The translations under genes and the position numbers were made by a program. Positions 2,889 to 54,125 of a DNA stretch of 55,942 nucleotides are shown in pieces (the stretch's first letter is position 1; every line of letters starts with the position of its first letter). The DNA lies in NCBI GenBank assembly GCA_027064305.1, contig JAMOPY010000015.1:1-55942 (forward strand), read 5' to 3'. This DNA comes from Methanobacteriota archaeon (GTDB taxonomy: Archaea > JAADCQ01 > Methanopyri > Methanopyrales > Methanopyraceae). The notes beneath the pieces are model-generated. The model ran no database searches, had not been told where the DNA came from, and worked only from the letters and a program-made list of their open reading frames with translations.

Positions 2889-2911
2889 AACGTTAGCCGT
2901 TGTCTAACGAT
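2889..2911. repeat. Dispersed intergenic palindrome, copy 1 (degenerate)
   Basis: AACGTTAGC-CGTTG-TCTAACGAT followed by AGG; same 9-5-9 geometry as the other five copies. Confidence 0.6.
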
Positions 2912-2947
2912 AGGCCGAACCGCGATGGAGCACTCACCCGCCGCTCG

Positions 2948-2953
2948 AAAAAA
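2948..2953 (-). terminator. Oligo-T terminator candidate after pstS
   Basis: TTTTTT on the minus strand about 20 nt after the pstS stop, in very GC-rich DNA. Confidence 0.55.
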
Positions 2954-2973
2954 TGGTGGGTGGTGAGGGGGGT

Positions 2974-3948
2974 CTATACCAGGGGCTTGATCTCCACGTA
3001 CGGCTTCTTCATGAACAGCGGCGCGCTCGGTGGTACCGGCACGTAGCCCAGCTTCTCCGCGATCTTCTTGTTAACGTCCGGCTTCCGGACCCACTTGATC
3101 AGCGCGATCGCCGTCTTCGGCGCGCTGGACCGGTCGATGATCAGGTACTCGGCCCGCGTCAGCGGGTACTTCTTCGACTGGATCGTGCTCTTGTTCGCCT
3201 CGATCCCGTTCACCTTCAGCGGCTTGACCTGGCCCGGTACCTTCTTCTCCTTCTGCGCCTTCACGACGTACACGTAGTCCACGTAGCCGATCGCGTACGG
3301 CGTTTTCTCCACCTTCTCCAGCACCTCCGCGTTGGAACCGCACAGGATCGCGTCCTTCCGGTAGTCCTTCAGGTTCAGGTACTTGTCGAACGTCGCCCGC
3401 GTGCCCGAACCCTTCGCTCGACCGATCACGATGATCCGCTTGTGCGGCAACCCCGGCTTCACCTGGTCCCAGTACTGGATCTTGCCCTCGTAGATCGCCT
3501 TGAGCGTCTTCACGTCGATGTTGTCCAGCTGACCCAGCGTCTTCCCGTTCACGATCGGCACGATGCCGGACATCACTACCGGGCACATCACCGGGTCGCT
3601 CAGCTGCTGCGCCTCCTCCGGCTTGATCGGTCGCGAGGCCATCGCGATGTCGAACGACCCGTCGATCAGACCCTTGATACCCGCGCCCGAGCCACCGTCC
3701 GTGACCATCAGCTGCACCGGCTCGTTCGGCAGCCCGTGCACTCCCACTTGATCACCCAGCTGCTTCCAGGTCAGGTGCTGCTTCTCTCCGACCTCGCCTG
3801 CCACCTTCATCATGAACGGCATGAGGCTCGTTGAGCCGCCGATCTTCAGCTGCGTCTTCACCTGCGACGCCGAGTAATAATAAGCCACGCCGCCACCGAT
3901 CGCCGCCACGACGGCGACCGCGATCGCGACCGCGACGGACTTCCTCAT
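2974..3948 (-). CDS. pstS: Phosphate ABC transporter substrate-binding protein
   Basis: True start MRKSVAVAIAVAVV (signal/anchor) at 3948; GGSTS, GGSGAGI, DIAMASRP, GSGTR, AIGYV, YPLTR motifs. Confidence 0.92.
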   Translation of the reverse strand: MRKSVAVAIAVAVVAAIGGGVAYYYSASQVKTQLKIGGSTSLMPFMMKVAGEVGEKQHLTWKQLGDQVGVHGLPNEPVQLMVTDGGSGAGIKGLIDGSFDIAMASRPIKPEEAQQLSDPVMCPVVMSGIVPIVNGKTLGQLDNIDVKTLKAIYEGKIQYWDQVKPGLPHKRIIVIGRAKGSGTRATFDKYLNLKDYRKDAILCGSNAEVLEKVEKTPYAIGYVDYVYVVKAQKEKKVPGQVKPLKVNGIEANKSTIQSKKYPLTRAEYLIIDRSSAPKTAIALIKWVRKPDVNKKIAEKLGYVPVPPSAPLFMKKPYVEIKPLV

Positions 3949-3980
3949 GCGCCTCCCCCCGGCCCCGCATCCCCCCTCCG

Positions 3981-3995
3981 TTTTATAAGGATAAC
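3981..3995 (-). promoter_or_regulatory. TATA box for pstS
   Basis: CCTTATAAAA on the minus strand about 33-42 nt upstream of the ATG. Confidence 0.55.
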
Positions 3996-4039
3996 GGAGC
4001 GGGACATCGAGTTCACATGATAGGAAGAGGGGTTCCCGA

Positions 4040-4912
4040 TTGAAGCACTGCCGCGTCTGCGGGATCCCGGCCCGCGTGGAGGGGGTGGAGCTGGACGAGG
4101 ACGGCGTCTGCCGGGCCTGCCGGCGCCAGCTTCCCCACCTACCGGACCCGGGAGAGCTGCGCGAGCGCACGATCAAGGAGCTGAAATCCTGCGATCGGGT
4201 GGCCGTGGCCGCCTCCGGAGGTCTCGACAGCCTCGCCGCGCTCGCCCTCGCCGCCCGCCATTGCCGCGAGGTCGTGATGCTCACGGTCGACACCGGCACC
4301 CTCCACCCGGAGGCCTGGCGGCGCCTGCACCTCGCCCGCCGCCGGCTCGACGTGGAGTGGCGCGTGGTGGGGGACGTGGACCCCTTCCTCCGGCTCTTCG
4401 AGCGCCGGCTCCCGAGGGCCCAGTCCCCCTGCGGCCCCTGCTCTCGGATGATCGAGCGCCGGTGCGTGCGGGCCGCCCGGAGGCTCGGCGTTGACGCTCT
4501 CGTGACCGGGCACGAGCTCCCGCACGGAACCGACCCGGTCGTCCCGAAGGACCCGCCCGTGATCCGCGCCATGTGCGGGTGGACGGAGCGGGAGAGGTGG
4601 GAGCTGGTTAGGGAGGAGCTCGGGATGGAACCGAAGAAGCTGGCCGGTTACACGTCCAACTGCGTCGTACTACCCTTCGCGCTCCGACGCTTCCACGAGG
4701 AGCACGGTTACAGCTTCGAGGCGCCCCGGCTCGCCGCCATGGTTCGGCTCGGTTACCTCGGCAAGCGGGAGATGTGGCGGAGGCTCGAGCCGCCCGGTGA
4801 GGAGGAGTTGAGGGGACTGCTGGAGGAATGCCGGGGCTGGATCCCGAGGCGGCTGGAACGGGTGCTGCGGGAGACGTTGCGTTCAGCCGGTGGGCCCGGA
4901 AGTGGGGGATGA
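4040..4912 (+). CDS. PP-loop (N-type ATP pyrophosphatase) superfamily protein with N-terminal Cys motifs
   Basis: CRVC...CRAC, VAASGGLDS, CGPC, LVTGHE, GYTSNC. Confidence 0.8.
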   Translation: MKHCRVCGIPARVEGVELDEDGVCRACRRQLPHLPDPGELRERTIKELKSCDRVAVAASGGLDSLAALALAARHCREVVMLTVDTGTLHPEAWRRLHLARRRLDVEWRVVGDVDPFLRLFERRLPRAQSPCGPCSRMIERRCVRAARRLGVDALVTGHELPHGTDPVVPKDPPVIRAMCGWTERERWELVREELGMEPKKLAGYTSNCVVLPFALRRFHEEHGYSFEAPRLAAMVRLGYLGKREMWRRLEPPGEEELRGLLEECRGWIPRRLERVLRETLRSAGGPGSGG

Positions 4913-5739
4913 CCAGCCTAAGGCGGCTCCTGAACCTGCTCAGGGAGCGGCTGGGTGGGCGGCGCGTCCACCTGATGCTCTCCGGCGGTCAGGACAGCGC
5001 CGTCGCGGCCCGCGTCCTTCGGCTCGCCGGGCTCGAGGTGGTCGCCGTGCACGTGACCCACCGCTGGACGTGGCCCACCCCGGGGCTCGAGGCGCGGCGG
5101 ATGGCCCGCCGCCTCGGGCTCAGGCTGCGCGTCGTCGACGTCACGGACCGGCTGCTCGAGCGCCTTCCCGGGGCCAAGGGTCGGTCGGTGTGCAGGATCT
5201 GCAAGCACGCGATGATCGAGGCGGTGCTCGAGGAGCTGGGGCCGGAGGTGTTGGCCACGGGCGAGTGCGGGCTCGACACGATCGCCGGGGCGGTCCTGGA
5301 CCTCGCCCGGAGGACCGGCGAGGAGCCGGAGTTCGTCCAGGTGCCGAAGCGGTTCTTTGGGGGCGAGACGCTCGTCGTCCGGCCTCTCATCCGGCTGCAC
5401 GAGCGGGACGTGCTCCGGCTGGCCGAGAGGCTGAACGTCCGGGTACGCAGGGTCGGGGAGACGGGGGACCTCAGGCGCGGGCGGCGCGAGGGGTGCCCGC
5501 TGCAGCACCTGGACCCCGAGGTGACGGTCACGGAGGAGTTGCTGGAGGAGGTCTGGCGGGTCAACCTCGCGGCCCTGCGCGCCGCCCGCCGGCTCGGCCG
5601 CCGGGTCGCGGTCAAGTGGCCCTCGTTTCGGCTCCTCCTCCCGGGATCCGGGGAGTGCGAGCGGAGGCTGGTGGCGGAGCGCGCCTGGGGGGAGGCGGTC
5701 CGGTCCGGATCCTCGGCTCGGCTCGGGAAAGATACTTAA
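4909..5739 (+). CDS. PP-loop superfamily ATPase
   Basis: ATGA overlap with the previous stop; LMLSGGQDS, CRICK, VVRPL. Confidence 0.78.
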   Translation: MTSLRRLLNLLRERLGGRRVHLMLSGGQDSAVAARVLRLAGLEVVAVHVTHRWTWPTPGLEARRMARRLGLRLRVVDVTDRLLERLPGAKGRSVCRICKHAMIEAVLEELGPEVLATGECGLDTIAGAVLDLARRTGEEPEFVQVPKRFFGGETLVVRPLIRLHERDVLRLAERLNVRVRRVGETGDLRRGRREGCPLQHLDPEVTVTEELLEEVWRVNLAALRAARRLGRRVAVKWPSFRLLLPGSGECERRLVAERAWGEAVRSGSSARLGKDT

Positions 5740-5759
5740 CGGTGTTAGGGCAACCTAAC
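5727..5759 (+). promoter_or_regulatory. BRE/TATA followed by a DtxR/MntR-type palindromic operator
   Basis: GAAAGATACTTAAC, then perfect GTTAGG-GCAA-CCTAAC at 5744-5759. Confidence 0.75.
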
Positions 5760-5775
5760 GGCGGGGTGATCGAAG

Positions 5776-6186
5776 ATGGCCCGGTACCGGTACGTCGGAC
5801 CCTGCCGGTGCGGGTTCGGACCGCACGCGTTCTACGAGGACACGGAGACGGGAGAGATCAAGCACGCCTGGGAGATCCTGGGAGAGAAGGGAGTCCCCGT
5901 GCCGCCGGCGTGGCCCGGTGGCTGGCGCGGAGGACCGGGATGGAGAGGCGGTTGGGGCGGCGGCTGGTGGTGGGCGGCGATGACGGACGAGGAGACGCGG
6001 GAGAAGATGATCGAGGCCATGCGGAAGGCCTTCGGCGAGGACTTCGCCGAGACCATGAAGGAGCTCGCGGAGAGCTTCAGCAGGGCGGCCGCCGGCGAGG
6101 TCGAGAGGGACGAGCTCAGGGAGCTGCGGAAGAAGCTTGAGGAGCTGGAGAGGAAGCTTGAGGAGCTAAGCAAGGACGAGGACTAA
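5776..6186 (+). CDS. Small protein with CxC/His motif, Gly/Trp-rich segment and C-terminal coiled coil (DUF5320-like)
   Basis: RBS GGGGTGA; GPCRCGFGPHAFY, GGWRGGPGWRGGWGGGWWW, ELRELRKKLEELERKLEEL. Confidence 0.65.
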   Translation: MARYRYVGPCRCGFGPHAFYEDTETGEIKHAWEILGEKGVPVPPAWPGGWRGGPGWRGGWGGGWWWAAMTDEETREKMIEAMRKAFGEDFAETMKELAESFSRAAAGEVERDELRELRKKLEELERKLEELSKDED

Positions 6187-6200
6187 GGGGACGGTCGGGC

Positions 6201-6776: not shown

Positions 6777-6779
6777 CGG

Positions 6780-7577
6780 TTGAGGCTCGCGGTGACCGGC
6801 GGCAAGGGCGGCGTGGGCAAGACGACGATCGCGGCGCACGCGCACCGGCTGTTGGGCTGGACCACCGTGGACCTGGACGTCACCACGCCCAACCTGCACC
6901 TATACCTGGACTGCGAGGAGGAGGCCCGGAGTAGGGTATGCCTGATCGGCCCCGAGGTCGACCCGGACCGGTGCACGCTGTGCGGCGAGTGCGCCCGGGT
7001 CTGCCACTCGGGTGCCGTGATCGTGGGCCGGTCTTGGGACCTGGACCCGGGCCTGTGCCACGGGTGCGGCCTGTGCCTGGATGCCTGCCCGCGGGACGCC
7101 CTAACGCCCCGGGAGATCGAGATCGGTGAGGTGCGCGAGTACCGGGTGCGGGAGACGGGGGCCCGGCTTCTCTCCGGCCGGCTTAACGTCGGGGACCGCC
7201 GCTCCCGGCACCTCGTGCGTCACCTGCTGGACCACACCGAGGATCGACCTCGGCTTCTGCTGGACACCCCCGCGGGCGCCGGGAAGGAGGTGTACGACGT
7301 CCTCAGGGCCGTCGACGCCGCGCTCGTCGTCACGCAGCCCACGCCCGCCGCGCTCCGGGACCTGCGTCGCCTACTTCGGGTGATCCGGGTCGCGCGCGTG
7401 CCGCACGTCGTGCTGATTAACCAGGCGGACCTCTCCGAGCGTTGGACGAGGCGGGTCGAGCGGGAGGTTGAGGTCCCCACGTGGAGGGCGCCCCGGGTGG
7501 ATGACCCGCTGGGGTCCGACGAGCTGCGCGACGTCGTCCGGGAGGCCCTGGACGGGCTGAGGGAGGAGGCCGCTTGA
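6780..7577 (+). CDS. MinD/Mrp-like P-loop ATPase with inserted ferredoxin domain (COG1149)
   Basis: GGKGGVGKTT, DLDVTTPNLHL, CTLCGECARVC, CHGCGLCLDACP, DTPAG. Confidence 0.88.
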   Translation: MRLAVTGGKGGVGKTTIAAHAHRLLGWTTVDLDVTTPNLHLYLDCEEEARSRVCLIGPEVDPDRCTLCGECARVCHSGAVIVGRSWDLDPGLCHGCGLCLDACPRDALTPREIEIGEVREYRVRETGARLLSGRLNVGDRRSRHLVRHLLDHTEDRPRLLLDTPAGAGKEVYDVLRAVDAALVVTQPTPAALRDLRRLLRVIRVARVPHVVLINQADLSERWTRRVEREVEVPTWRAPRVDDPLGSDELRDVVREALDGLREEAA

Positions 7578-9423: not shown

Positions 9424-9457
9424 GCGAGGCCCTCCCCGGTTCGCCGCGCGACCGGGT

Positions 9458-9480
9458 TTCGTTATGGTGGTCGTAACGAT
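9458..9480. repeat. Dispersed intergenic palindrome, copy 2
   Basis: TTCGTTATG-GTGGT-CGTAACGAT followed by TGG. Confidence 0.8.
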
Positions 9481-9502
9481 TGGTCGGGGGGCGTTGGGGG
9501 GC

Positions 9503-10708
9503 CTACTTCTCGATGATGGTCTCCTCGACCTCCATGCCGAAGTGGCGGCCCTTGCGCTCGTCGGTCTCGACGTAGGCGAGGACCTTGTCGCCGGGCTTGA
9601 GGTCGACGACGGAGACGGGCTCGCCGTCCTCGCGGACGAGGTGGATGGTCTCGGCGTTCTGGACGATGGTCTGGAGCTCGATGCCCTCGTACTCGGCCTT
9701 GATCAGTAGGAGTGGGCGCTTCTCGATCTTGAGGCGGCCGACGACGGCGGTGCGGGCGTTGCCCTCCCGGTCGACGACGAGGACTTCGTCGCCGGGCTCG
9801 AGCTCGGCGAGGTACTTGGTTCGGCCGCCGGGGACGCGGATGTACGCGTGGACGGGGCCGGCGTTGACGCGGAAGGGTCGGGGCTCGACGTAGGGGTTGT
9901 CGAGGCTCTCGCTGTGGATGAGGAACATGCCGTGGGCGGTGGAGCCGACGAGCATGCCCTCGCCTTCCTCCATGAGGGTGCAGGTGTCGACGCAGACGCG
10001 GTCGCCCTTGCCGATGGGCTCGATCTCCTTGATCTCGACGGGGACGAGCTCGAACCGCTCGGCGGTGACCTCCTCGGCCACCTCGGCCGTCTTCTTGATC
10101 TCGCCCGGCTCGATGCGCTGGGCGTCTAGGAGGACTCCGTCGGCGCCGACCTCGAGGGTCTCGAAGGCGATCTTGGCCTCCTCCGCGTCGCGGGCGCCGG
10201 CGATGAGTCGGGTGGGCTCGTCCTGGAGCTCGGCGATCAGGTTCTCGAGGGGGATGATCTTCCAGTCGCGGCCGATGGTGATGAGGTACTCGGGCTCGAG
10301 CTCCCGGGCGATCTCGGCGGCGAAGCGCTCGTAGGGCTTGTCCCGGATCTCGACGTACTCGGCGACCTCGTACCCCTGCTCCCGGGCGCGCCGGAGGAGC
10401 TCCGCGTCGACGGACTCGCTCACGTCCTCCGGCAGGTCGATCGTGCCGTCACCCTCGCCCCGGACGCCGACGATGACGAGGTCGGCGTCCACGTCTTCCA
10501 GCTCGTCGAGGGCGAGGTCGGGGGAGCCGCCCTCGGCGGCGAGCGGGACGGCGACCTTGACGTTGCCCAGCTCCTTGACCTTCTCCACCTCCTCCGGGAG
10601 GCAGACGATCACGTCGGCGCCGGCCTCGAGGGCCTCGGTGACGAAGGGCTTCTTCTCCTCCCACGAGGCCTCGTGCGCGATGGAGACCCAGATCTCCTTC
10701 TCGGCCAT
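9503..10708 (-). CDS. aroB': 3-dehydroquinate synthase II (archaeal type)
   Basis: DWKIIPLENLIAE, GDRVCVDTC, RPFRVNAG, QNAETI, GRHFG. Confidence 0.93.
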   Translation of the reverse strand: MAEKEIWVSIAHEASWEEKKPFVTEALEAGADVIVCLPEEVEKVKELGNVKVAVPLAAEGGSPDLALDELEDVDADLVIVGVRGEGDGTIDLPEDVSESVDAELLRRAREQGYEVAEYVEIRDKPYERFAAEIARELEPEYLITIGRDWKIIPLENLIAELQDEPTRLIAGARDAEEAKIAFETLEVGADGVLLDAQRIEPGEIKKTAEVAEEVTAERFELVPVEIKEIEPIGKGDRVCVDTCTLMEEGEGMLVGSTAHGMFLIHSESLDNPYVEPRPFRVNAGPVHAYIRVPGGRTKYLAELEPGDEVLVVDREGNARTAVVGRLKIEKRPLLLIKAEYEGIELQTIVQNAETIHLVREDGEPVSVVDLKPGDKVLAYVETDERKGRHFGMEVEETIIEK

Positions 10709-19082: not shown

Positions 19083-19148
19083 CGGCCTCGGGGCCCGCGA
19101 CTGCGATCATCCCCGGCGGTCGCCGTGGGTCCACCTCCTCATCGGCCG
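19083..19148 (-). ncRNA. C/D box sRNA candidate
   Basis: CGGCC stem; C ATGAGGA; 12-nt guide; degenerate D'/C' (GCGA...ATGATCG); 12-nt guide; D CCGA; GGCCG stem. Confidence 0.55.
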
Positions 19149-19171
19149 ATCGTTCCGATGGTCGTAACGAT
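19149..19171. repeat. Dispersed intergenic palindrome, copy 3 (at the skew switch)
   Basis: CCG-ATCGTTCCG-ATGGT-CGTAACGAT-TGG; symmetry extends into both flanks. Confidence 0.8.
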
Positions 19172-19212
19172 TGGGTTTTGTTTTTCGGTCTCGGGGGACC
19201 GCGGGGCGCCTC

Positions 19213-25949: not shown

Positions 25950-27905
25950 TTGAACGAGGCGAGTGGCAGGAAATCTCTGAGCGAGGTGAAGAAGGAGATC
26001 AAAGAGAAGGTGGAGGAGGTCCTACCCTCGGACATCGTCGTGACCGACGTGGACCTGGAGGGACCGGAGGTCGTCATCTACACGAACTCGCCGCACTCCT
26101 TCGTCAAGAACGACTCCGACCTCATCACCCGGCTGGCCAAGGCCCTGCGGAAGCGCGTGAAGATCCGGCCCAACCCCAGCGCCCTCTCCCCCGCCAAGGA
26201 CGCGAAGAAGGTCATCCTGGACATCATCCCGGAGGACGCCGGCGTCAGCGAGCGGGACCTGATCTTCCTGGACACGGGCGAGGTCGTCATCTTCGCCAAG
26301 AAGCCGGGCCTGGTCATCGGCAAGCGCGGCAAGAACGTGCACCGGATCTCCCGAGACACGGGCTGGGTTCCCAAGATCTACCGGAAACCGCCCATCCCCT
26401 CCAAGACGGTCAACACGACCCGCCGGCTCATCCTCTCCGACGACTCCCGCCGCCGGTTCCTTAAGAATGTCAGCGAGCGCATCTTCTGCGGGCGCACGCG
26501 CAGCCGCGGCAGCGAGTCCCGCTGGGCCCGCGTCAGCGCGCTCGGCGGGTTCCAGGAGGTCGGCCGTTCCGCCCTCTTCCTGCACACCGAGGAGAGCCGC
26601 GTGCTCCTGGACTGCGGCGTGAACGTGGCCGCCAACGGTCGGGACGCGTACCCGCACTTCAACGTCCCGGAGTTCCGCATGGACGATCTGGACGCGATCG
26701 TGATCACGCACGCGCACCTGGACCACTGCGGCTTCCTCCCGTACTTCTACCGGCACGAGGTCATCGAGAGCCGCGTACCCGTCTACTGCACGCCCCCGAC
26801 CCGCGACCTGATGTACCTGCTCCTCCTCGACTACATCAAGGTCACCGAGAAGCGCGGTCAGGAGCCCCCGTACACGGAGAAGGACGTCAAGAAGGTGATC
26901 AAGCGCACGATCACCCTCGACTACCGCGAGCCCACCGACATCACCCCGGACATCAGCATCACCTTCTACAACGCCGGCCACATCCTCGGCTCCGCCTCCG
27001 TGCACGTGTTCCTCCAGGACAAGGGTTTCAACTTCGTGTACACGGGCGACATCAACCCCACCCCTTCCCGACTCCTCGAGGGCGCGGACAACCAGTTCAA
27101 GCGCGTGGACTGCATGGTCATCGAGGCGACCTACGGGGACTCCCGGCACGGCAGCCGACGCAAGGAGGAGGCCCGCTTCCGGAAGATCGTGCGCGACACC
27201 GTCCGCAAGGGCGGGAAGGTCCTCATCCCCTCCTTCGCCGTCGGGCGCGCCCAGGAGGTCATGCTCGTCCTCGAGGACATGTACCGCAAGGGCGAGCTCG
27301 AGTGCCCCGTGTACCTGGACGGCATGATCTACGAGGCGACCGCCATCCACTCCACCTACCCAGAGTACCTGAACAAGCGCCTCCAGCACCGCATCCTCCA
27401 CGAGGACGACGACCCGTTCACCTCCGAGGTGTTCCGTCCCGTCGAGGGCTCCGACCACCGGCGCGCGATCATCGAGGACGACGACCCGGCCGTCGTCCTC
27501 TCCACCTCCGGCATGCTCGAGGGCGGCCCCATCCTCGAATACCTCAAGGAGCTCTCAGAGGACCCGAAGAACACGCTCGTGTTCGTCGGTTACCAGGCCG
27601 AGGGCACCCTGGGCCGGCAGATCCAGGAGGGGTACCAGGAGGTCCCCCTGCCGACCCCGGAGGGCAAGACCGAGACGCTCCGGATCAAGCTCCGCGTCGA
27701 GACCGTGAGCGGGTTCAGCGGGCACGGGGACAAGATCGAGCTGACCAAGTACGTCCGCACGATCAAGCCCGCGCCCCCGTCGAAGATCTATACTAACCAC
27801 GGGGAGCCCAAGGCCTGCAAGCACCTGTCGAACCACCTGCGCCGCACGTTCCGCAAGGTCTTCTCCATGGCCCCGGAGAACCTCGAGTGCTTCCGGCTGA
27901 CGTGA
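25950..27905 (+). CDS. fttA: aCPSF1/FttA beta-CASP ribonuclease (transcription termination factor)
   Basis: KH region KPGLVIGK, GGFQEVGRS, THAHLDH, AGHILGS, FSGH, NHGE. Confidence 0.93.
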   Translation: MNEASGRKSLSEVKKEIKEKVEEVLPSDIVVTDVDLEGPEVVIYTNSPHSFVKNDSDLITRLAKALRKRVKIRPNPSALSPAKDAKKVILDIIPEDAGVSERDLIFLDTGEVVIFAKKPGLVIGKRGKNVHRISRDTGWVPKIYRKPPIPSKTVNTTRRLILSDDSRRRFLKNVSERIFCGRTRSRGSESRWARVSALGGFQEVGRSALFLHTEESRVLLDCGVNVAANGRDAYPHFNVPEFRMDDLDAIVITHAHLDHCGFLPYFYRHEVIESRVPVYCTPPTRDLMYLLLLDYIKVTEKRGQEPPYTEKDVKKVIKRTITLDYREPTDITPDISITFYNAGHILGSASVHVFLQDKGFNFVYTGDINPTPSRLLEGADNQFKRVDCMVIEATYGDSRHGSRRKEEARFRKIVRDTVRKGGKVLIPSFAVGRAQEVMLVLEDMYRKGELECPVYLDGMIYEATAIHSTYPEYLNKRLQHRILHEDDDPFTSEVFRPVEGSDHRRAIIEDDDPAVVLSTSGMLEGGPILEYLKELSEDPKNTLVFVGYQAEGTLGRQIQEGYQEVPLPTPEGKTETLRIKLRVETVSGFSGHGDKIELTKYVRTIKPAPPSKIYTNHGEPKACKHLSNHLRRTFRKVFSMAPENLECFRLT

Positions 27906-28958: not shown

Positions 28959-28972
28959 CCCGCCCCGCGGGA

Positions 28973-28995
28973 ATCGTTACGAGAGTCGTAACGAT
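28973..28995. repeat. Dispersed intergenic palindrome, copy 4 (perfect)
   Basis: ATCGTTACG-AGAGT-CGTAACGAT followed by CGG, between the convergent purM and rpl32e stops. Confidence 0.85.
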
Positions 28996-29022
28996 CGGCC
29001 GCAAGAACGGGGCGTCGGGCGT

Positions 29023-29418
29023 TCAGGCGTTCAGGACCACGATGCCCAGCTCCTTCGCCTTCTTGAGGATCTCGCGCCGCTTGCGCTTGCCGACGCGGGA
29101 GGCGATCCGGGCCGCCTGGCGCTCCGGGTCGATCTTCTCCAGGTCCTTCGGGTTGTAGACGAGCACCTCCTCGTACCCGGACGGGTGCAGGCCGCGCACT
29201 TTCTTGGGGGAGCGGTAGCCGGGGTTGGGCATCTTGGGCTTGCTCTTGAACTTGCGGCGCATCTTGCTGTGCCGGCCCTTGGGCCGGCGCCACTTCTCGC
29301 CCAGCCGCTTGTACCGGTGCCACTCCTGGCGGCGGAACTTGGGCTTCTTGCGCTTGAGCTCCTCCCGGAGCCGGAGCAGGCGCTCCTCCTCCTTGGATAG
29401 GTTGGGGTTGCGGACCAA
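29023..29418 (-). CDS. rpl32e: 50S ribosomal protein L32e
   Basis: [31 protein letters not shown]; start TTG 29418 or GTG 29427. Confidence 0.95.
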
Positions 29419-36402: not shown

Positions 36403-36675
36403 CTAGACCCGGTGCATCGCTCGGTACACGTCCTCATGCTGCACGACCACGTCCACGCCGAGCTCCTCGCCGACCCGCTCCAGCTCCCGGCGCAGCTCCT
36501 TCACGCTCACGTCCGCCTCGGAAAGGTCCACGAGCATGACCATCGCGAAGAGGTCCCGGAGCACGGTCTGCGAGATGTCCTCGATGTTCACGTTGTGCTC
36601 CGCCAGGACGCGCGACACGCCCGCCACGATGCCGGGCCGATCCACCCCGATGACCGTCACCACGGCCCGGGTCAA
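36403..36675 (-). CDS. ACT-domain protein (UPF0237)
   Basis: VVTVIGVDRPGIVA..NVNIEDISQT..QHEDVYRAMHRV; usual partner of DUF711. Confidence 0.88.
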   Translation of the reverse strand: MTRAVVTVIGVDRPGIVAGVSRVLAEHNVNIEDISQTVLRDLFAMVMLVDLSEADVSVKELRRELERVGEELGVDVVVQHEDVYRAMHRV

Positions 36676-36759
36676 CCGGACAACCCCCGACGCGGGTTTC
36701 CCCTCCCACGCCCGATATCCCCATTTAGGGGCCGACCGGGCCGCGGCCCGGGGCCGCGC

Positions 36760-37563
36760 GTGCCCGGGCTGTGGACCTCGATCCTGGCCGGGGTGGTGCA
36801 GGGCACCCTCGAGTGGCTTCCGGTCAGCAGCGAGGGCCAGGCCGCGATGGCCCTGATGCGGGTTATAGGGGTGCACCCCCGGATCGCGCTCGACCTCGCC
36901 CTGTGGCTGCACGCCGGCACCCTCCTGGCCGTGCTCGCCCGCTTCGCCCGCCCGTACCTGAACGCGCTCGTCGGCCTGGTGCGGGGCGGTGAGTGGCGCC
37001 GGCTCGCGGTCTTCCTGATCGTGGCCACCCTCGCCACGGGCGCGGTGGGGGTCCCGATTTACAAGGTGCTCAAGCGCGCGGTCTCGGCGGCGACGGGCGA
37101 CACCGTCCAGATGCTCATCGGGCTCGCGCTGATCGTCACCGGTCTCCTCCTCCGGGTCTCGCCCGCGGGGCTGAGGACCCGGTGGGACGTGCGCCTCTCG
37201 GACGCCCTGCTCGTGGGGCTCGGGCAGGGGTTCGCCGTGATCCCGGGCATCAGCCGCTCGGGCACGACCATGGCGATCCTGCTCTGGCGACGGTTCGACT
37301 CGGGGGACGCGGTCTGGCTCTCCTTCTTCCTCGCGGGTCCGGCGATGCTCGGGGCCACCGTGCTCGAGCTGAAGGAGGGGATGGAGGCCGCGCGGGCCGT
37401 GGGGGCTGAATGGATGGCGGGCGCGCTGGCCACCTCCTTCATCGTCAGCCTCCTCTCGATGGAGGTTCTCCTGCGGGTGGCCCGGCGGCTGGACTTCTCC
37501 AAGGTCTGCCTCCTGCTCGGTGCGATCGCGCTGCTCGCGCCGCTGATCGGAAAGGTGGCGTGA
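36760..37563 (+). CDS. uppP: Undecaprenyl-diphosphate phosphatase (UppP/BacA family)
   Basis: GVVQGTLEWLPVSSEG, HAGT, QGFAVIPGISRSGTT, SFFL. Confidence 0.9.
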   Translation: MPGLWTSILAGVVQGTLEWLPVSSEGQAAMALMRVIGVHPRIALDLALWLHAGTLLAVLARFARPYLNALVGLVRGGEWRRLAVFLIVATLATGAVGVPIYKVLKRAVSAATGDTVQMLIGLALIVTGLLLRVSPAGLRTRWDVRLSDALLVGLGQGFAVIPGISRSGTTMAILLWRRFDSGDAVWLSFFLAGPAMLGATVLELKEGMEAARAVGAEWMAGALATSFIVSLLSMEVLLRVARRLDFSKVCLLLGAIALLAPLIGKVA

Positions 37564-44030: not shown

Positions 44031-44053
44031 ATCGTTTCGAGTATCGTAACGAT
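44031..44053. repeat. Dispersed intergenic palindrome, copy 5
   Basis: ATCGTTTCG-AGTAT-CGTAACGAT followed by CGG. Confidence 0.82.
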
Positions 44054-50005: not shown

Positions 50006-50073
50006 GGGTCAGTGCCGCCTGAGCTCCTCATTTACCTCGGCGTTCGGTCGCCTCATCATCCGGGGGAGCCCGG

Positions 50074-51093
50074 TTGAAGGACCTCCGGAACTGTAAACTC
50101 TGCGCCTGGGAGTGCGGGGTGGACCGGCTGGAGGGTGAGCGAGGGGTCTGCCGGGTCACGGAGCCCGTCGTGGCCTCGAAGCAGCTGCACCCGGCCCCAC
50201 CCGCGAGCTACACCGTGTTCCTGGGCGGGTGCAACTACCGCTGCCTGAACTGCCAGAACTGGGACATCGCGCACTACCCGGACAACCCGGAGGGCCGCGT
50301 GCTCGGGCGCCAGGACCCGCGGGAGCTGGCCGTCGAGGCGGTGAACATGATCGAGACCCCGCAGGGTCGCGCGATCGGGGCGGACCGGATCTTCTTCTCC
50401 GGGGGAGAGCCGACCATCCACCTCCCGTACGTGGAGGAGGTCGTCGAGCACTTCCGGGAGGTTACGGACCTCTGGAAGGTCAACTTCGACACGAACGGGT
50501 TCGCCACGCGGAGGAGCATGCGGCGGATCGTCCGGCTCGCGGACTCGATCACGTTCGACTTCAAGGCGTACTCGGACGAGCTGCACCGCGCGCTCACCGG
50601 CGCGCCCGTGGAGCCCGTCCTCCGGAACCTGGAGCTCCTCATCCCGTCGCACCTGGACCTGATCTGGGAGGTCCGGATCCTGCTGATCCCGGAGGCGCAC
50701 GACGAGGAGGAGATCCGGGGCATGTGCGAGTTCCTGGCGGACCTGGACGAGTCCGTCCCCGTCTGCTTCCTCGCCTTCCGACCGAACTTCGTGCTGGAGC
50801 GGCACCCGGGCGCGCCGCGGAGGCTGATGCGCCGGGCCGTGGAGATCGCGCGGGAGTGCGGGCTGGAGAACGCCTCCTGGTCCGGCCTGCCGGACCTGGA
50901 GGGGGAGGTGCCGCCCCGGGTCCGGAACCACCGGAAGGCGCTGCTGAACCGGTACGGCGGTCACGAGGGGGCCGCCCTGATGGCCGGGTACGCGCGCGAG
51001 GTCGGGTGCCCGCGCCACCCCCGCGACTGCGGCGGCTGCCCCCGGATGGCGGAGTGCCCGGTGAAGCGGTACCGGGCGGCGCGAAGGACGTGA
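50074..51093 (+). CDS. Radical SAM protein, PFL-activase-like, with extra Cys clusters
   Basis: CKLCAWEC..C, CNYRCLNCQN, SGGEPT, DTNG, C-terminal C..CGGC..C. Confidence 0.85.
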   Translation: MKDLRNCKLCAWECGVDRLEGERGVCRVTEPVVASKQLHPAPPASYTVFLGGCNYRCLNCQNWDIAHYPDNPEGRVLGRQDPRELAVEAVNMIETPQGRAIGADRIFFSGGEPTIHLPYVEEVVEHFREVTDLWKVNFDTNGFATRRSMRRIVRLADSITFDFKAYSDELHRALTGAPVEPVLRNLELLIPSHLDLIWEVRILLIPEAHDEEEIRGMCEFLADLDESVPVCFLAFRPNFVLERHPGAPRRLMRRAVEIARECGLENASWSGLPDLEGEVPPRVRNHRKALLNRYGGHEGAALMAGYAREVGCPRHPRDCGGCPRMAECPVKRYRAARRT

Positions 51094-51639
51094 TCACTCC
51101 CGCCAGCGGCGGAACTCCTCGAACCGGCGCTTGATCCGCCCGGGGATCCCGGGCGGGCTGAGCTCGCCCAGGTAGCCCCGATCGTCCCCCTCGAGCTCCA
51201 CCCGCTCGCGCAGCTCGGCCCGGAGGAGGAACTCGCACAGGCCCGCGTTCCGGAGGACCGCGTCCCGGGGGCGGAGCGTGACGGACCACACGTAGTACAC
51301 CTTGAAGGCCGTGTCCGGGAACATCCCGCCCCCGAGGTCGACCGCGAGCACGTCGCACGAGGGCTCGTCGAGGAGCTCCAGGACCCGCTCGAGCGTCTCG
51401 TACTCCCGCGCGTCCCCGGGGACGAACGTCAGCTCCCTGTGCTCCCGCTCCAGCCGGGTCATCGCCTCGCGCGCCTCCTCCCCGTAGTCCACGGCCACGA
51501 CCCGGGCCGGGCGACGGCGCAGGATCCGGCGCGTGGCGGCGCCCCGGTGGCAGCCGAGCTCCACGACGACGTCGCCCTCCCGCACGACCTCGCCCAGAAG
51601 CTCCCGGTACCGGTCCACGGAGCGGACCAGCGCGATCAA
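51094..51639 (-). CDS. SAM-dependent methyltransferase-fold protein
   Basis: VVVELGCHRG, VVAVD, GDA, DVLAVDLGG. Confidence 0.75.
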   Translation of the reverse strand: MIALVRSVDRYRELLGEVVREGDVVVELGCHRGAATRRILRRRPARVVAVDYGEEAREAMTRLEREHRELTFVPGDAREYETLERVLELLDEPSCDVLAVDLGGGMFPDTAFKVYYVWSVTLRPRDAVLRNAGLCEFLLRAELRERVELEGDDRGYLGELSPPGIPGRIKRRFEEFRRWRE

Positions 51640-51685
51640 GCCCGGGCCCCGCTAGGCTTTTGTCCGGTCGCGCGGTCCGACCCCG

Positions 51686-51749
51686 CGGATGATGACGGTT
51701 TCAGGCGCCGAGTTCGGCCGGGGATGCGGACATCTCCCCGCACTGACCC
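51686..51749 (+). ncRNA. C/D box sRNA
   Basis: ATGATGA-CGGTTTCAGGCG-CCGA...ATGCGGA-CATCTCCCCGCA-CTGA. Confidence 0.75.
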
Positions 51750-51753
51750 CGGA

Positions 51754-51811
51754 GGGTGACGAGGGCCCTCCGGGGTCCGAGGGGTGAGGAGACCGGCCCG
51801 CGCTACCGACT
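51754..51811 (+). ncRNA. Second tandem C/D box sRNA candidate
   Basis: GTGACGA-14 nt-CCGA-ggg-GTGAGGA-15 nt-CCGA. Confidence 0.5.
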
Positions 51812-52906
51812 CCGGGTGACCACCACCACCGCCCTTCGGTTGTTCGCCCCCACCCGGAACCGCTCCTCCGCGATCACCTCACCGCCCAGCTCCCGGCGCA
51901 GGCGCCGGACCATCCGATCGTAGTACCGGTCCCCGATCGACAGGCCGACCCCGTACTCCCCGAGGTCCAGGGTGGCCAGCCCGGCCCCGTCGATGTGCTT
52001 CCCGTGCGCGAGCCGGGTGAGGAGCCCCCGGATCACGGTCGCGCTCGGGGGCGCGCCGCCCGTCGCGAGCTCCCGCACCTCATCCAGCGTCTCCTCCACC
52101 AGCCGCTGCGCCGTGCCCCCCAGCTCCAGTCCCCGGATCTCCGTACGATCCGCCCGCGTCGTGCGGTACCCCTCGATCAGCGACCCGTCCACCCACTCCC
52201 GTAAGATCAGCCGGGCCGCGCCCTCCGGGTCCCGGCCGAGGCGGTCGGCGATGGCCCGGAGGACCTCCCCCGGGTCGTCCCCCTCCTCGACGCCGAAGCG
52301 CTCCCGCAGGGCGCCCGGGTACTCGCGCAGCACCCGGTCGATCACGCGGGTGGCGGGCGAGATCGGATCCTCAAGGACGTCCGGATCGAGGGCGCCGGCC
52401 TCCTCCCCCGCCTCCTCGGTCGGGATCACGCCGGGCGAGTCGATGATGAGGAGCCGGCGCCCGCCGCTCACCCACATCTTCCCCTTCGTGTAGCCGGCCT
52501 CCCGGGAGGTGGGGGCGGCCGCGCGGCGGGCGAGGGCGTTGATGAGCGTGGACTTGCCGACGTTCTGCACGCCCACGACGCCCACGCGCACGGTCTCCAC
52601 GTCCTCCGGCGCGACCTCGAAGATCGTCCGGCGGAGGTACCGGATGCCCAGCCGCTCCCGACCGCTCACGTAGACGGTGGGCACGCCCTCCTCCCGCTCG
52701 ATCCGCTCCTTGGCCTCCTCCGCCCGGGCCCGCGGGACGGTGTCCGCCTTGTTGAGCACGACCACGCGGGCGTAGTCGAACACGTCCTCGAGCCGCGCGA
52801 GCCGGTCCCAGCGGGTTTCCTCGGGGTACCGGACGTCCCGCACGTCGAGGACCACGTGGGACTCGGCCAGGACGCGCATGACGTGCCGGTACCACCGGGG
52901 CGGCAC
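51803..52906 (-). CDS. Circularly permuted YlqF/RbgA-family GTPase with C-terminal extension
   Basis: G4-G1-G3 order: LNKAD, GVQNVGKSTLIN, GYTKG, DSPG. Confidence 0.88.
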   Translation of the reverse strand: MPPRWYRHVMRVLAESHVVLDVRDVRYPEETRWDRLARLEDVFDYARVVVLNKADTVPRARAEEAKERIEREEGVPTVYVSGRERLGIRYLRRTIFEVAPEDVETVRVGVVGVQNVGKSTLINALARRAAAPTSREAGYTKGKMWVSGGRRLLIIDSPGVIPTEEAGEEAGALDPDVLEDPISPATRVIDRVLREYPGALRERFGVEEGDDPGEVLRAIADRLGRDPEGAARLILREWVDGSLIEGYRTTRADRTEIRGLELGGTAQRLVEETLDEVRELATGGAPPSATVIRGLLTRLAHGKHIDGAGLATLDLGEYGVGLSIGDRYYDRMVRRLRRELGGEVIAEERFRVGANNRRAVVVVTRSR

Positions 52907-52964
52907 CGCCTCGCCCCCCTCAGCAGCCTTTTTATCGGCGTGTTAACCTTCGGTCGTCACGGGG

Positions 52965-54083
52965 GTGGTCGCCATTAAAGCTGACCTCGAGGCGCTGGAG
53001 ACGCTGCAGCGGGACGTGGAGCCGGCCCGGGACGGGGCGCTCCCGCGGCGGGTAGACGAGCGGATCGTCCGGGAGCTGTACGAGGAAGGGGAGCGGTTCG
53101 CCGCCTTCGGAGCCTACTACCGGCGGGAGAAGGGCTGCAAGGTGATGAAGGCGGCCGTGGACGGCGGCTTCGTGTGCCCGAACAAGGACGGTCGGATCTC
53201 GCGCGAAGGGTGCCTCTTCTGCCCGAAGATGGGTCGCACGATCATCACGCCCAACGTCGACCCGCGGAGGAAGATCGAGGAGCAGGCCCGGAAGCAGATG
53301 GAGGTCTTCCGGGAGCGGTACGGGGCGGAGAAGTTCCTGGTGTACTTCTACCCGGCGACGAACACGTACGCGCCGCCGGACGTGCTGGAGGAGCTGTACA
53401 ACCGGGCGCTCGAGATGGAGGACGTGATCGGGCTGTCCATCGGCACGCGGCCCGACTGCCTGCCGGACGAGGTCCTGGACCTGCTGGAGGGGTACGTGAA
53501 GGAGGGCTACGACGTCTGGCTGGAGATCGGCGTGCAGTCGTACCATCACCGGACGCTGACGCGGGTGCGCCGGGGTCACGGGCTGGCGGAGGTGATCGAC
53601 GCGATCGTCCGGGCCAAGGAGCGGGGCATCCGGGTGGTGAACCACATCATCTTCGGGCTGCCGGGGGAGACCCGCGGGGAGATGTTGGAGACCGTGCGGG
53701 TGCTCTCGGTGCTGGGCGTGGAGGCGGTGAAGCTGTACCCGCTGGTCGTCCTGGAGCGGACGGACCTGGAGTGCCTGTACCGGGAGCGGCGGTACAAGCC
53801 GCTGAGCTACCGGGAGTACATCCGGCTGCTCGCGGACGCGCTGGAGCGGATGGCGCCGACCGTGCTCATCCAGCGGCTGTCGAAGGACCGGGCGCCGGAC
53901 GAGGAGGTGATCGAGCCGGAGTGGGACCTGTACCGGATGAAGGTGATCTCCGACGTGCGGCGGGAGCTGGCGCGGCGCGAGTCGCGGCAGGGTGCCCGGT
54001 ACAAGGTGGGGCTGGACGCGGACGAGCTGGTGCCGCTGGTCAAGGGGGCCACGGGCGCGGAGGGCTCGGAGGTGCCGGCGTGA
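52965..54083 (+). CDS. Radical SAM protein, YhcC/TIGR01212-like
   Basis: GFVCPNKDG...GCLFC, TNTYAP, IGTRPDC, EIGVQS, HIIFGLP. Confidence 0.88.
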   Translation: MVAIKADLEALETLQRDVEPARDGALPRRVDERIVRELYEEGERFAAFGAYYRREKGCKVMKAAVDGGFVCPNKDGRISREGCLFCPKMGRTIITPNVDPRRKIEEQARKQMEVFRERYGAEKFLVYFYPATNTYAPPDVLEELYNRALEMEDVIGLSIGTRPDCLPDEVLDLLEGYVKEGYDVWLEIGVQSYHHRTLTRVRRGHGLAEVIDAIVRAKERGIRVVNHIIFGLPGETRGEMLETVRVLSVLGVEAVKLYPLVVLERTDLECLYRERRYKPLSYREYIRLLADALERMAPTVLIQRLSKDRAPDEEVIEPEWDLYRMKVISDVRRELARRESRQGARYKVGLDADELVPLVKGATGAEGSEVPA

Positions 54084-54102
54084 CCGCCCGGCCCGGCGCC
54101 GT

Positions 54103-54125
54103 TTCGTTACGGTTTACGAAACGAT
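54103..54125. repeat. Dispersed intergenic palindrome, copy 6
   Basis: TTCGTTACG-GTTTA-CGAAACGAT followed by CGG, between the convergent radical SAM gene and rnpB. Confidence 0.8.

Follow-up and report, generated by a model that had tools for sequence, protein, structure and literature searches.

A Methanopyrus-specific palindrome as a probable bidirectional signal at the ends of transcription units

Archaeal terminators of the oligo-U/oligo-T type are described, in the parts of the literature available to us, as either intrinsic or assisted by FttA/aCPSF1 (PMC7289017, PMC8716108). Closer to the element analysed here is CGTTA(N)9TAACG, which a 2017 study of Methanopyrus kandleri AV19 reported as a tRNA-downstream motif (BMC Genomics, PMC5217627). 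The accessible portion of that paper presents it as palindromic and organism-specific, situated about 10 bp past the tRNA genes; roughly every second tRNA gene of the one genome examined had it, and a role in tRNA maturation was offered as a guess. It shares its core, 9-nt spacing, palindromic form and place with our element, and we regard the two as the same. An earlier, sequence-only reading of the present DNA had named no described system; the core was in fact already published for M. kandleri, and, to the extent that this source is available, the element is in print solely as the tRNA-downstream motif of that organism.

We propose, from sequence comparisons, that the palindrome is very probably a lineage-specific, bidirectional signal for the end of transcription units and, more tentatively, that a dimeric factor may recognise it in duplex form. 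The earlier interpretation is upheld in part: the palindrome does lie between genes and at 3' ends, and a dyad site for a dimeric protein with a terminator or insulator role stands as the best reading. If true, this would be a type of stop signal without a described precedent in archaea.

Copies in the window

The window, that is the whole 55,942-nt contig stretch which was analysed, contains all six of the 23-mers originally reported from it, each in its place. The relevant features are as follows.

2888..2912, no strand: palindrome, degenerate, with the permease gene start (2882) on one side and the pstS-like gene stop (2974) on the other, both genes minus
9457..9481, no strand: palindrome, 22 nt past the DHQS II gene stop (minus) and 34 nt before a GTPase gene start (flanks by Pfam); 1 mismatch, 33.4 bits
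19148..19172, no strand: palindrome in a convergent spacer, 120 nt past the TPP-enzyme gene (plus) and 98 nt past a 270-aa ORF (minus); 32.8 bits
25950..27905, plus: FttA/aCPSF1 gene (Pfam KH_TffA, metallo-beta-lactamase, Beta-Casp, RMMBL); context, outside the element
28972..28996, no strand: palindrome, perfect, between an AIRS-family gene (plus, stop 28958) and L32e (minus, stop 29023; flanks by Pfam); 0 mismatches, 40.9 bits
44030..44054, no strand: palindrome, 13 nt past the Macro-domain gene stop (minus) and 71 nt before an ABC ATPase gene start; 38.2 bits
54102..54126, no strand: palindrome, between a radical-SAM gene (plus, stop 54083) and the RNase P RNA 3' end (minus); 29.9 bits
54141..54507, minus: RNase P RNA gene (Rfam RF00373, E 6.1e-23, full model length)

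Five copies (9459, 19150, 28974, 44032 and 54104) conform to TCGTTACG-N5-CGTAACGA with 0-1 mismatch; 0.11 matches are expected per window, and none of 100 shuffles reached five. The copy at 2889 is degenerate (5/16 mismatches, 5.9 bits), retains an exact CGTTA-N9-TAACG, and is flanked by genes with the Pfam domains PBP_like_2 and BPD_transp_1. Our own gene calls and Pfam analysis of the flanking genes bore out that the window copies lie outside coding sequences. Each copy also lies past a minus-strand 3' end on its right, as had been described, with gaps of 62, 22, 98, 27, 13 and 15 nt to the pstS-like (PBP_like_2) gene, the DHQS II gene, the unnamed 270-aa ORF, L32e, the Macro gene and the RNase P RNA, respectively. 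The flanking genes have no common function by Pfam, again in agreement with the earlier description. Convergent placement was likewise seen, the count being three copies and not two, since that at 19149 also lies past the plus-strand TPP-enzyme gene; the density, put earlier at about 1 per 10 kb, was recounted as 1 per 13.9 kb. Directly after the 19148..19172 copy there is a T-rich tract, TTTTGTTTTT (19176..19186, plus strand), which resembles the classical oligo-T signal of archaea and would serve the TPP-enzyme gene.

The copy beside the DHQS II gene has an ortholog at L040 and L041, and none at L042. L32e is the final gene in a minus-strand row of ribosomal-protein genes, and its orthologous spacer has a copy in genomes G005 and G003 and none in G002, G001 and G004. 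The RNase P copy was found in the same place in G005, G003, G002 and G001 despite diverged flanks, and is absent from G004. The RNase P RNA itself, with 82 bits, falls slightly below the gathering score of 84; its 3' end lies 15 nt from the palindrome.

Genome-wide distribution and gene ends

The genome, a MAG that is 89% complete, was annotated with our own Markov gene caller and scanned at a threshold of >=10 bits. The pattern AATCGTTACGA-N3-TCGTAACGATT gave 87 sites, as opposed to 1 for the control. The spacing is fixed, as had been claimed: allowing <=3 mismatches, a gap of 5 gave 73 matches across the genome, gaps of 2-4 and 6-8 gave 1-2, and a reversed control at gap 5 gave 0. The CGTTA...TAACG core occurs 42 times with N9, 0-1 times with each other spacing from N5 to N13 and never in a reversed control, and 46 of the 47 occurrences of the half-site ATCGTTACG fall within full sites. 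Non-coding DNA makes up 7.5% of the genome, yet contains 67/87 sites (p=3e-57), so that the intergenic enrichment which the sequence-only reading had suggested looking for is present. Tandem spacers hold 44 sites and convergent spacers 23 (in 22/81), and none of the 179 divergent spacers has one (p=3e-10), so that the element is not a promoter operator, as had been argued earlier for the copies between convergent 3' ends.

Other parts of that first description proved to be local. The restriction to minus-strand genes is a sampling effect, the tandem sites of the genome being divided into ++ 26 and -- 18. The element had been called oriented because NGG stands to the right of 6/6 window copies, but genome-wide the two flanks show approximate dyad symmetry, with C prevailing 5' of the palindrome and G prevailing 3' of it whichever strand is read. 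These flanks are specific to the element; C after the stop amounts to 56.5% with the motif vs 35% without. A chromosome mark of the parS/Ter/KOPS kind was not upheld either, as the sites track gene 3' ends within 5-30 nt and not chromosome position.

Among the called tRNAs, 24/26 have the palindrome 6-11 nt past the encoded CCA; the two others possess no CCA, no Rfam support and no promoter box, and look like false calls. Three more tRNA 3' ends were revealed by a T-loop scan, each with a palindrome. Copies were also located 13 nt downstream of the SRP RNA and 79 nt downstream of the 16S rRNA, and 61 of the 87 sites have no adjoining RNA gene. Thirty-five sites lie 13-60 nt past a CDS stop (at least 35 CDS ends), and none is closer than 13 nt. 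Judged by eye, each of the 26 supported tRNAs, and likewise the SRP RNA, comes with a separate A/T-rich promoter box, and in the tandem pair tRNA-Ala/tRNA-Ile a palindrome and a fresh promoter box lie between the two genes. At about 10 tandem sites an SD-like G-run and start codon follow 4-22 nt on (e.g. the hemL-like CDS after tRNA-Thr), which makes full termination impossible there. Tracts of T>=5 were not enriched at 3' ends (28/411 3' flanks vs 41/581 5' flanks). In the RNA runs, contigs display mature tRNA CCA ends.

The palindrome is present in 6/6 genomes of the genus/phylum with 24-72 sites each, and thus is conserved among relatives, a point raised by the earlier reading; the same distribution recurs in G002, which with 64 sites has 17 convergent, 31 tandem and 4 'divergent' ones. 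The 25 other archaeal families sampled gave only 0-2 matches each. By these sequence searches, the palindrome is Methanopyrus-specific.

Proposed mechanism and rival explanations

We suggest that AATCGTTACGA-N3-TCGTAACGATT, between its C-rich 5' and G-rich 3' flanks, would mark the unit end whichever side the polymerase comes from, filling the place of the oligo-T tracts of other archaea. A typical unit would run from promoter box to gene, 5-30 nt and palindrome. A dimeric sequence-specific protein would bind both half-sites in duplex DNA and halt or slow RNA polymerase at or within the site, and the transcript would then be released, possibly aided by the resident nuclease FttA. FttA/aCPSF1 is the archaeal general termination nuclease, and its gene is the sole Beta-Casp gene in each of the six genomes. 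TFS is absent from 6/6 genomes, and with no TFS to restart a stalled polymerase, release would be favoured. Protein roadblocks halt multi-subunit polymerases 11-14 nt ahead of the block. The motif lies only about 5-7 nt past the tRNA CCA, so a front-edge roadblock would truncate tRNAs; a plain roadblock of this type therefore fits poorly with the short gap, and the polymerase would have to enter the site. Termination is probably less than 100% at some sites, where the palindrome would serve as an intra-operon attenuator, as between the pstS-like and permease genes or between a tRNA and the following CDS.

Perhaps the signal is instead read in the RNA, the transcribed palindrome and its C-/G-rich lower stem forming a hairpin bound by a sequence-specific protein or nuclease, which would cleave or protect the end. 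Termination would then follow cleavage, and the candidate binders are a partner protein dedicated to the signal and FttA, which as a dimer would act through its KH domains. The bounded distances, 5-11 nt past CCA and at least 13 nt past stop codons, fit clearance of a processing enzyme or ribosome, and the 13-nt floor could reflect ribosome clearance on RNA. The C-rich 5' and G-rich 3' flanks, which occur only alongside the motif, could pair generically and lengthen the stem, and copies stand directly ahead of an SD and start codon in likely co-transcripts. The aCPSF1 of Methanococcus also acts with a cis RNA element, a U-tract, in the available part of PMC8716108. We nevertheless find an RNA signal rather unlikely, as changes in one arm are independent of those in the other. 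At pair 7/15, Watson-Crick partners stand in 28/65 sites vs 30.9 expected and mispairs in 37/65, compensatory change was found at no pair in the 65 sites, and in the transcribed sense there is no G-U bias (19 G-U, 25 A-C, 73 other mismatches). Mispairing affects about 23% of stem cells, the core is AT-rich within a 70% GC genome, and the hairpin is predicted to be unfolded at 98 C in 61/65 sites (94%) with 6-nt flanks and in 60% with 18-nt flanks; the claim that it would be a poor RNA hairpin is thus borne out. Flank pairs at 85 C number 6.4, real flanks pairing no better than those swapped between sites. Loop length is constant, and the arm sequences themselves are conserved, beyond pairing. 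Arm conservation tracks transcription direction and, with the fixed spacing and the near-absence of lone half-sites, favours the duplex-DNA reading: at 26 RNA-gene sites the first-met arm is better conserved (24 vs 54 deviations; 19:3, p=0.0009), and facing a convergent gene it is the far arm (1.64 vs 2.58 deviations, p=0.028).

This directional conservation argues against a DNA-topology or chromatin-boundary site, at which a lineage-specific enzyme or nucleoid protein (topoisomerase V or reverse gyrase, for example) would relieve or confine supercoils at unit ends, with termination as a side effect at most. Such a role would suit a dyad DNA element of fixed spacing, enriched between convergent genes (22/81 spacers) and confined to one lineage, as, to our knowledge, topoisomerase V is restricted to Methanopyrus; gyrase acts likewise at bacterial REP elements. 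Distances of 5-11 nt from tRNA ends and 13-30 nt from stops are, however, far tighter than topology requires, we know of no sequence-specific topoisomerase here, and we consider this reading improbable. Selfish, REP-like spread through extragenic DNA, with survival at 3' ends where insertion is harmless, would explain why CDS-end copies are gained and lost between species along with about 45-65 nt of spacer, why the L32e spacer copy occurs in 3/6 genomes and the DHQS one in 3/4 (window counted), and the 24 to 72 copies per genome. It appears quite improbable, given that a Y1/RAYT transposase was found in 0/6 genomes (the control search was positive in 6/14 reference genomes), that near-identical copies are not in excess (16 pairs vs 12 expected, p=0.23), that sites hold one copy each and no clusters, that all supported tRNA genes have one at a uniform distance, and that the RNase P copy is fixed in 5/6 genomes though its flanks diverged. 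A signal for tRNA 3' maturation only, as speculated in the accessible text of PMC5217627, would account for the copy at every supported tRNA gene and for the better conserved tRNA-proximal arm. We regard it as highly improbable: of the sites away from RNA genes at least 35 lie past CDS stops, 5/6 window copies trail protein genes, and the SRP RNA, RNase P RNA and 16S rRNA have copies too, so that tRNA maturation as the sole role is contradicted by genome placement and CDS-end sites. Dyad symmetry is typical of the operator of a transcription-factor regulon, but this has almost no chance of being correct, being contradicted by the absence from divergent, promoter-only spacers (0/179 vs 22/81 convergent) and by flanking genes without a common function.

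Comparison with known systems

The end-of-unit signal proposed here has the same place as the archaeal oligo-T terminators, past protein genes as well as tRNAs, and presumably does the same job; the genus also possesses FttA. It differs from them in having no T-run, in being a conserved 25-bp dyad and not a composition signal, and in serving both directions from one site. Bacterial Rho-independent terminators share the dyad symmetry past genes, at least about 13 nt beyond the stop codon, whereas the stem of the palindrome is AT-rich and often mispaired, lacks a U-tract and is conserved in sequence.

Terminators which depend on a DNA-bound factor include the mTERF1 site after the mitochondrial 16S rRNA and, for Pol I, the Sal box/TTF-I and Reb1/Nsi1 sites. 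All are conserved DNA past stable-RNA genes where a protein halts the polymerase, as proposed for the palindrome, and mTERF1 similarly works on both directions. These sites are not simple dyads, however, and the proteins that bind them are monomers, of the repeat or the Myb type. Factor-dependent termination by Pol I is covered in the available part of PMC13675443. The Pol I stand-off is longer than the 5-7 nt which separate the palindrome from the tRNA end.

Bacterial REP/BIME elements with RAYT are imperfect extragenic palindromes, present in tens to hundreds of copies, that serve as binding sites for DNA enzymes and are able to terminate or stabilise transcripts. They too are extragenic, multi-copy and biased to 3' ends and convergent spacers, but the palindrome has no RAYT/Y1 (0/6 genomes), GTAG head, clusters or recent copy families, and stands at an exact distance from tRNA ends. 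The 3' stem-loop of histone mRNA has a conserved sequence, is read by SLBP and is coupled to CPSF73, a beta-CASP nuclease. Like the palindrome it comes soon past the stop codon and has a fixed loop, and FttA belongs to the beta-CASP family of CPSF73; the palindrome differs in serving all gene classes and in a hairpin predicted to be unstable at growth temperature. Compared with the M. kandleri motif as given in the available portion of PMC5217627, the element shows no RNA-type covariation, avoids divergent spacers, is carried by all supported tRNAs, and extends to the SRP RNA, the RNase P RNA and the 16S rRNA, to no fewer than 35 CDS ends and to 6/6 genomes of the lineage.

Sequence, geometry and number of copies

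The coordinates of all six palindromic 23-mers in the window (2889, 9458, 19149, 28973, 44031 and 54103) were confirmed on the sequence. Five of them match TCGTTACG-N5-CGTAACGA with at most one mismatch, against a chance expectation of 0.11 per window, and five were reached in none of 100 shuffles. The copy at 2889 has mismatches at 5 of 16 positions and scores only 5.9 bits, yet it retains the exact core CGTTA-N9-TAACG, which is present in the window at 2891, 9460 and 28975. The source genome (G000; 1.209 Mb in 50 contigs, of which the window is C15; 89% complete, 69.8% GC) contains this core 42 times with the 9-nt spacer, and zero times or once at the other spacings between N5 and N13; the reversed control gave none. 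The fixed 9-5-9 geometry held genome-wide, with 73 sites (up to 3 mismatches) at a gap of exactly 5 versus one or two at other gaps, and none for the reversed pattern at gap 5.

When the 50 best sites are combined into a symmetric weight matrix, the element lengthens to AATCGTTACGA-N3-TCGTAACGATT. Scanning the whole G000 genome with this matrix, a check proposed in the sequence-only reading, located 87 sites of at least 10 bits (control, 1), 65 of which reach at least 25 bits (control, 0). The density, put at roughly one copy per 10 kb from the window, is somewhat lower genome-wide, at one site per 13.9 kb. In this census each spacer carries a single copy. The element had been described as oriented; the site is in fact a dyad without strand polarity. 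Its consensus includes no T-run, and its 3' flank consists of TT followed by G-rich sequence. Lone half-sites acting as one-way signals were ruled out, since 46 of the 47 occurrences of the half-site ATCGTTACG in G000 fall within full sites.

A different repeat, 24 nt long and ending in CCATTGTAATCACC, occurs in four copies at L011 5626-6426 (part of contig C31 of G000, 36625-37425), at intervals of 167, 169 and 441 nt, within a region of long non-coding gaps with several palindrome copies. A likeness to CRISPR repeats was discarded, since neither G000 nor the gap-rich part of C31 yielded an array.

Placement at the 3' ends of genes

Gene maps were drawn with our own 3-periodic Markov caller (1274 genes, 90% coding), and flanking genes and RNAs were identified by Pfam and Rfam, respectively. 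The copies had been placed 7-98 nt past minus-strand 3' ends; this placement stands, with a range of 13-98 nt.

Features upstream of the six copies in the window (gene calls, Pfam, Rfam)
Copy at 2889: minus strand, pstS-like PBP gene
Copy at 9458: minus strand, DHQS II gene
Copy at 19149: minus strand, unnamed ORF
Copy at 28973: minus strand, L32e gene
Copy at 44031: minus strand, Macro-domain gene
Copy at 54103: minus strand, RNase P RNA, 54141-54507 (Rfam, 82 bits; gathering score 84)

Because the RNase P RNA falls below the gathering score, a default Rfam scan of the window reports nothing. No curated covariance model matched the element at gathering score across the window, and near the sixth copy only the RNase P RNA was found. 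Three window copies, not two as first counted, lie between convergent ends.

Genome-wide, 67 of the 87 sites are located in the 7.5% of G000 that is non-coding (p=3e-57), bearing out the expected intergenic enrichment. Based upon our gene calls, 44 sites lie in tandem spacers and 23 in convergent ones (22 of 81 spacers), and none in the 179 divergent spacers, even though 27.9% of the length of all spacers is divergent (p=3e-10). Thirty-five sites are positioned 13-60 nt past a CDS stop codon (median 24 nt), 13 nt being the minimum save at one likely miscall. The 13 sites within predicted CDSs are mostly weak. The strongest of these (35.8 bits) lies 6 nt past a tRNA-Sec gene (G000:C42:1622-1713) and overlaps a doubtful minus-strand ORF, which is probably a miscall; the presence of this tRNA gene implies that the organism uses selenocysteine.

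The sequence-only reading had denied the element a promoter-operator role and had called the flanking genes functionally unrelated. Both statements agree with the divergent-spacer count and with Pfam analysis of the flanks, and the same two observations speak against an operator for the transcription factor of a regulon. A role as promoter or TATA box of the downstream gene, which was prompted by starts at +14 to +17 after about seven copies, was ruled out as a general function by the convergent versus divergent counts. As for a parS-, Ter- or KOPS-like chromosomal mark, the sites track gene 3' ends (5-30 nt) and the replichore is not readable from 50 contigs.

The window is without a tRNA gene, and the strongest result is a genome-wide link to tRNAs. 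The core lies 6-11 nt past the encoded CCA (mode, 7 nt) in 24 of 26 assessable tRNA calls in G000. The two calls lacking it are reported by aragorn only, and have neither CCA, Rfam support nor a promoter box. A T-loop scan added three further tRNA 3' ends, all with the motif, and a fourth whose motif is cut by a contig end; running aragorn with introns enabled produced spurious tRNAs, and that set was left out. The three additional ends (T-loop plus CCA, at G000:C1:41946, C14:5012 and C33:17) escaped both aragorn and the Rfam tRNA model and probably belong to intron-bearing or contig-cut genes. The element follows the SRP RNA at 13 nt and the RNase P RNA at 15 nt. Palindromes lie 79 and 238 nt past the 16S rRNA (G000:C40:11209-12984), followed by a CDS rather than by a 23S gene; the SSU rRNA therefore looks like a transcription unit of its own. 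By eye, every supported tRNA gene and the SRP RNA has its own purine run and A/T box some 35-45 nt upstream, and on contig C34 a tRNA-Ala gene and its palindrome precede a new box and a tRNA-Ile gene with a further palindrome, so that promoter, gene and palindrome together form the repeating unit.

About ten tandem copies have an SD-like run and start codon 4-22 nt beyond them, as at a hemL-like gene after tRNA-Thr, and hence cannot be full stops; partial internal terminators are described in operons of Methanococcus in the parts of PMC10450193 consulted. Three species (G000:C4:8456; G001:C1:1232032; G002:C1:981465) have an identical 21-nt stretch at one copy with a GGGGG spacer, which lies directly 5' of an SD-like run and GTG start. 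Here the element may have a conserved use within an operon or in a 5' UTR.

Conservation and the termination machinery of Methanopyrus

The scan of other Methanopyrus genomes suggested from the window revealed 24, 29, 72, 68 and 59 sites (up to 2 mismatches; controls, 0) in the five other species of the genus (G001-G005). Twenty-five other archaeal families, as sampled, contained 0-2 sites (controls, 0-5), and the phylum is represented in the genome collection by six genomes only. The complete genome G002 (about 60% GC) has 71 sites at up to 3 mismatches (control, 2), and 17 of its 31 tRNAs have a site 5-10 nt past the CCA; tRNA-adjacent copies of different genomes are not independent of one another. 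Of 64 G002 sites of at least 10 bits, classified with our own gene calls over 176 kb, 31 are tandem, 17 convergent, 5 within CDSs and 7 at stretch ends; the remaining 4, nominally divergent, are confined to long gaps, which may contain unannotated small RNA genes.

The RNase P copy occupies the same place in five of the six genomes despite diverged flanks. The L32e copy is found in three (G000, G005 and G003), the other three having a spacer of 0-21 nt, and of the related stretches, L040 and L041 have the DHQS copy and L042 lacks it. Copies at stable RNA genes are therefore old, while those at CDS ends come and go. Next to the L32e copy (window 29008-29031) the 8-mer GCGTTCAG, which on the other strand includes the stop codon of L32e, is tandemly duplicated in G000 and nearly so in G005 (second copy, GCGTTTAG); it is single in G003, G002 and G001.

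Small-RNA contigs from runs X1-X4 of one 2013 study were placed on a 20-kb stretch of G002 (L016) with four strong copies (at least 27.9 bits). Their poly(A)-tailed loose ends are mature tRNA CCA ends (L016 6622, 6810-6812 and 10220-10222). Among the contigs listed none bridges a palindrome and one starts mid-copy (L016 6820-6840); such contigs cannot reveal primary 3' ends. One abundant RNA, L016 10068-10222, has its CCA end at 10220-10222 and a joint 10213>10068 with CCCACCA, and a palindrome copy begins 9 nt past that end. It resembles a permuted tRNA, or one with an intron, that Rfam missed.

The general archaeal termination nuclease, FttA (aCPSF1), is encoded in the window itself.

25950-27905, plus strand: FttA/aCPSF1 gene (Pfam KH_TffA, MBL, Beta-Casp and RMMBL)

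All six genomes have it as their sole Beta-Casp gene; many archaea have several. TFS is the factor that restarts backtracked polymerase. Its TFIIS-type zinc ribbon is missing from all six genomes and was detected in all four archaeal controls, and the passages of PMC7289017 consulted likewise state that M. kandleri lacks TFS. This absence may be relevant to the release of stalled polymerase. The same passages give the oligo-T tract as the stop signal accepted for archaea; in G000, tracts of at least five T are not enriched at gene ends (28 of 411 3' flanks versus 41 of 581 5' flanks).

Taken together, this is a lineage-wide dyad tied to the 3' ends of all gene classes, in the place that oligo-T takes elsewhere, with arms that drift independently. 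That it ends transcription units from both sides is probable.

Duplex DNA or RNA hairpin, and known systems

The main rival to recognition as duplex DNA is an RNA hairpin read by a protein or nuclease, which we consider unlikely. In its favour, the first 13 nt past the stop codon are 56.5% C and 26% G at genes with the motif (n=53) and 35% C and 38% G at those without (n=477), the mirror flank is G-rich, and the flanks pair generically (6.4 flank pairs at 85 C); true flanks, however, pair no better than flanks exchanged among sites. The limits of 5 nt past CCA and 13 nt past a stop codon also resemble the clearance that a processing enzyme and a ribosome would need. Against it, no pair of positions is more complementary than independent arms would give, pair 7/15 being Watson-Crick in 28 of 65 sites versus 30.9 expected. 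Mismatches in the 39 sites with one clear transcription direction comprise 19 G-U, 25 A-C and 73 others. The folding energy of the ideal 25-mer, -11.8 kcal/mol at 37 C, reaches 0 at 98 C, and 61 of 65 sites are predicted to be unfolded at 98 C, in keeping with the poor hairpin initially proposed; the 98 C energies are extrapolated and ignore the high salt of the cell. An AT-rich stem without covariation, whose arms drift independently, counts against a selected hairpin, and the invariant spacing, with the half-site not standing alone, counts for recognition as a dyad of fixed geometry.

The arms are not equally kept. At 26 RNA-gene sites deviations number 24 in the gene-side arm versus 54 in the far arm, the latter being worse at 19 sites and better at 3 (p=0.0009). 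Where a convergent gene faces the far arm, that arm is better preserved (1.64 versus 2.58 deviations, p=0.028), and tandem CDS sites are symmetric (50 versus 49). Protein roadblocks halt multi-subunit polymerases 11-14 nt short of the obstacle. A simple front-edge block by the factor would truncate tRNAs.

On the duplex reading, a dimeric protein bound to the palindrome would halt or slow polymerase, and FttA would perhaps complete termination afterwards; we infer this mechanism tentatively, as a real possibility short of a likelihood. More tentative still is the wider proposal that Methanopyrus, which would also have lost TFS, swapped the universal archaeal oligo-U stop for a sequence-specific terminator, with a putative dimeric protein on a 25-bp palindrome at nearly every unit end, serving both directions.

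The end of transcription is among the least understood steps of archaeal gene expression, and, as far as the parts of PMC7289017 and PMC13675443 consulted go, the U-tract is the only cis stop signal accepted so far. Here, in a lineage growing near 100 C with 60-70% GC, gene ends are not enriched in oligo-T, and one conserved palindrome follows tRNA genes, three other stable RNAs and dozens of operons. It would sharpen transcription-unit annotation in Methanopyrus genomes, and the question is directly testable with a single 25-bp oligo and about 90 sites per genome; if the duplex reading is true, one oligo would serve as a handle for fishing out the factor.

The element had been thought to match no described system. 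Its core has been in print since 2017: the passages of PMC5217627 consulted place CGTTA(N)9TAACG some 10 bp past roughly half of the M. kandleri AV19 tRNA genes, call it organism-specific and guess at a 3'-maturation signal. The element shares both the CGTTA and TAACG halves with their 9-nt spacer and the tRNA-downstream position of that motif. Literature searches on Methanopyrus termination, palindromes, inverted repeats and DNA-binding proteins returned no other report. The motif is absent from the passages of the M. kandleri small-RNA paper (PMC3695527) that we consulted, neither Methanopyrus nor palindromes come up in a review of termination signals from 2026 (PMC13675443), and searches on the arm sequences or on a Methanopyrus DNA-binding protein with such a site returned nothing relevant. 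The present results widen the 2017 observation, interpreted then as a tRNA-maturation signal only, to gene 3' ends generally.

Among terminators, the archaeal oligo-T type differs in that its RNA ends at a non-template-strand run of at least five T, and the bacterial Rho-independent type in its stable, GC-rich, compensated hairpin and U-tract. REP/BIME sequences are likewise extragenic, many-copy, imperfect palindromes at 3' ends, but the cognate Y1 transposase of REP/BIME-RAYT was not found in these genomes. A Y1/RAYT profile (PF01797) matched in none of the six genomes and in 6 of 14 reference genomes searched as a control, a TnpB-like domain exceeded the cut-off in G002 only, and copy families indicative of spread were not apparent (16 near-identical pairs versus 12 expected, p=0.23). 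With DNA-bound factor terminators of the mTERF1, TTF-I and Reb1 type the element shares a conserved DNA site at the end of a transcription unit. A DNA-bound reader, if confirmed, would be the first protein-plus-DNA-site terminator in Archaea, and an archaeal counterpart of the mitochondrial and Pol I terminator factors, mTERF and TTF-I.
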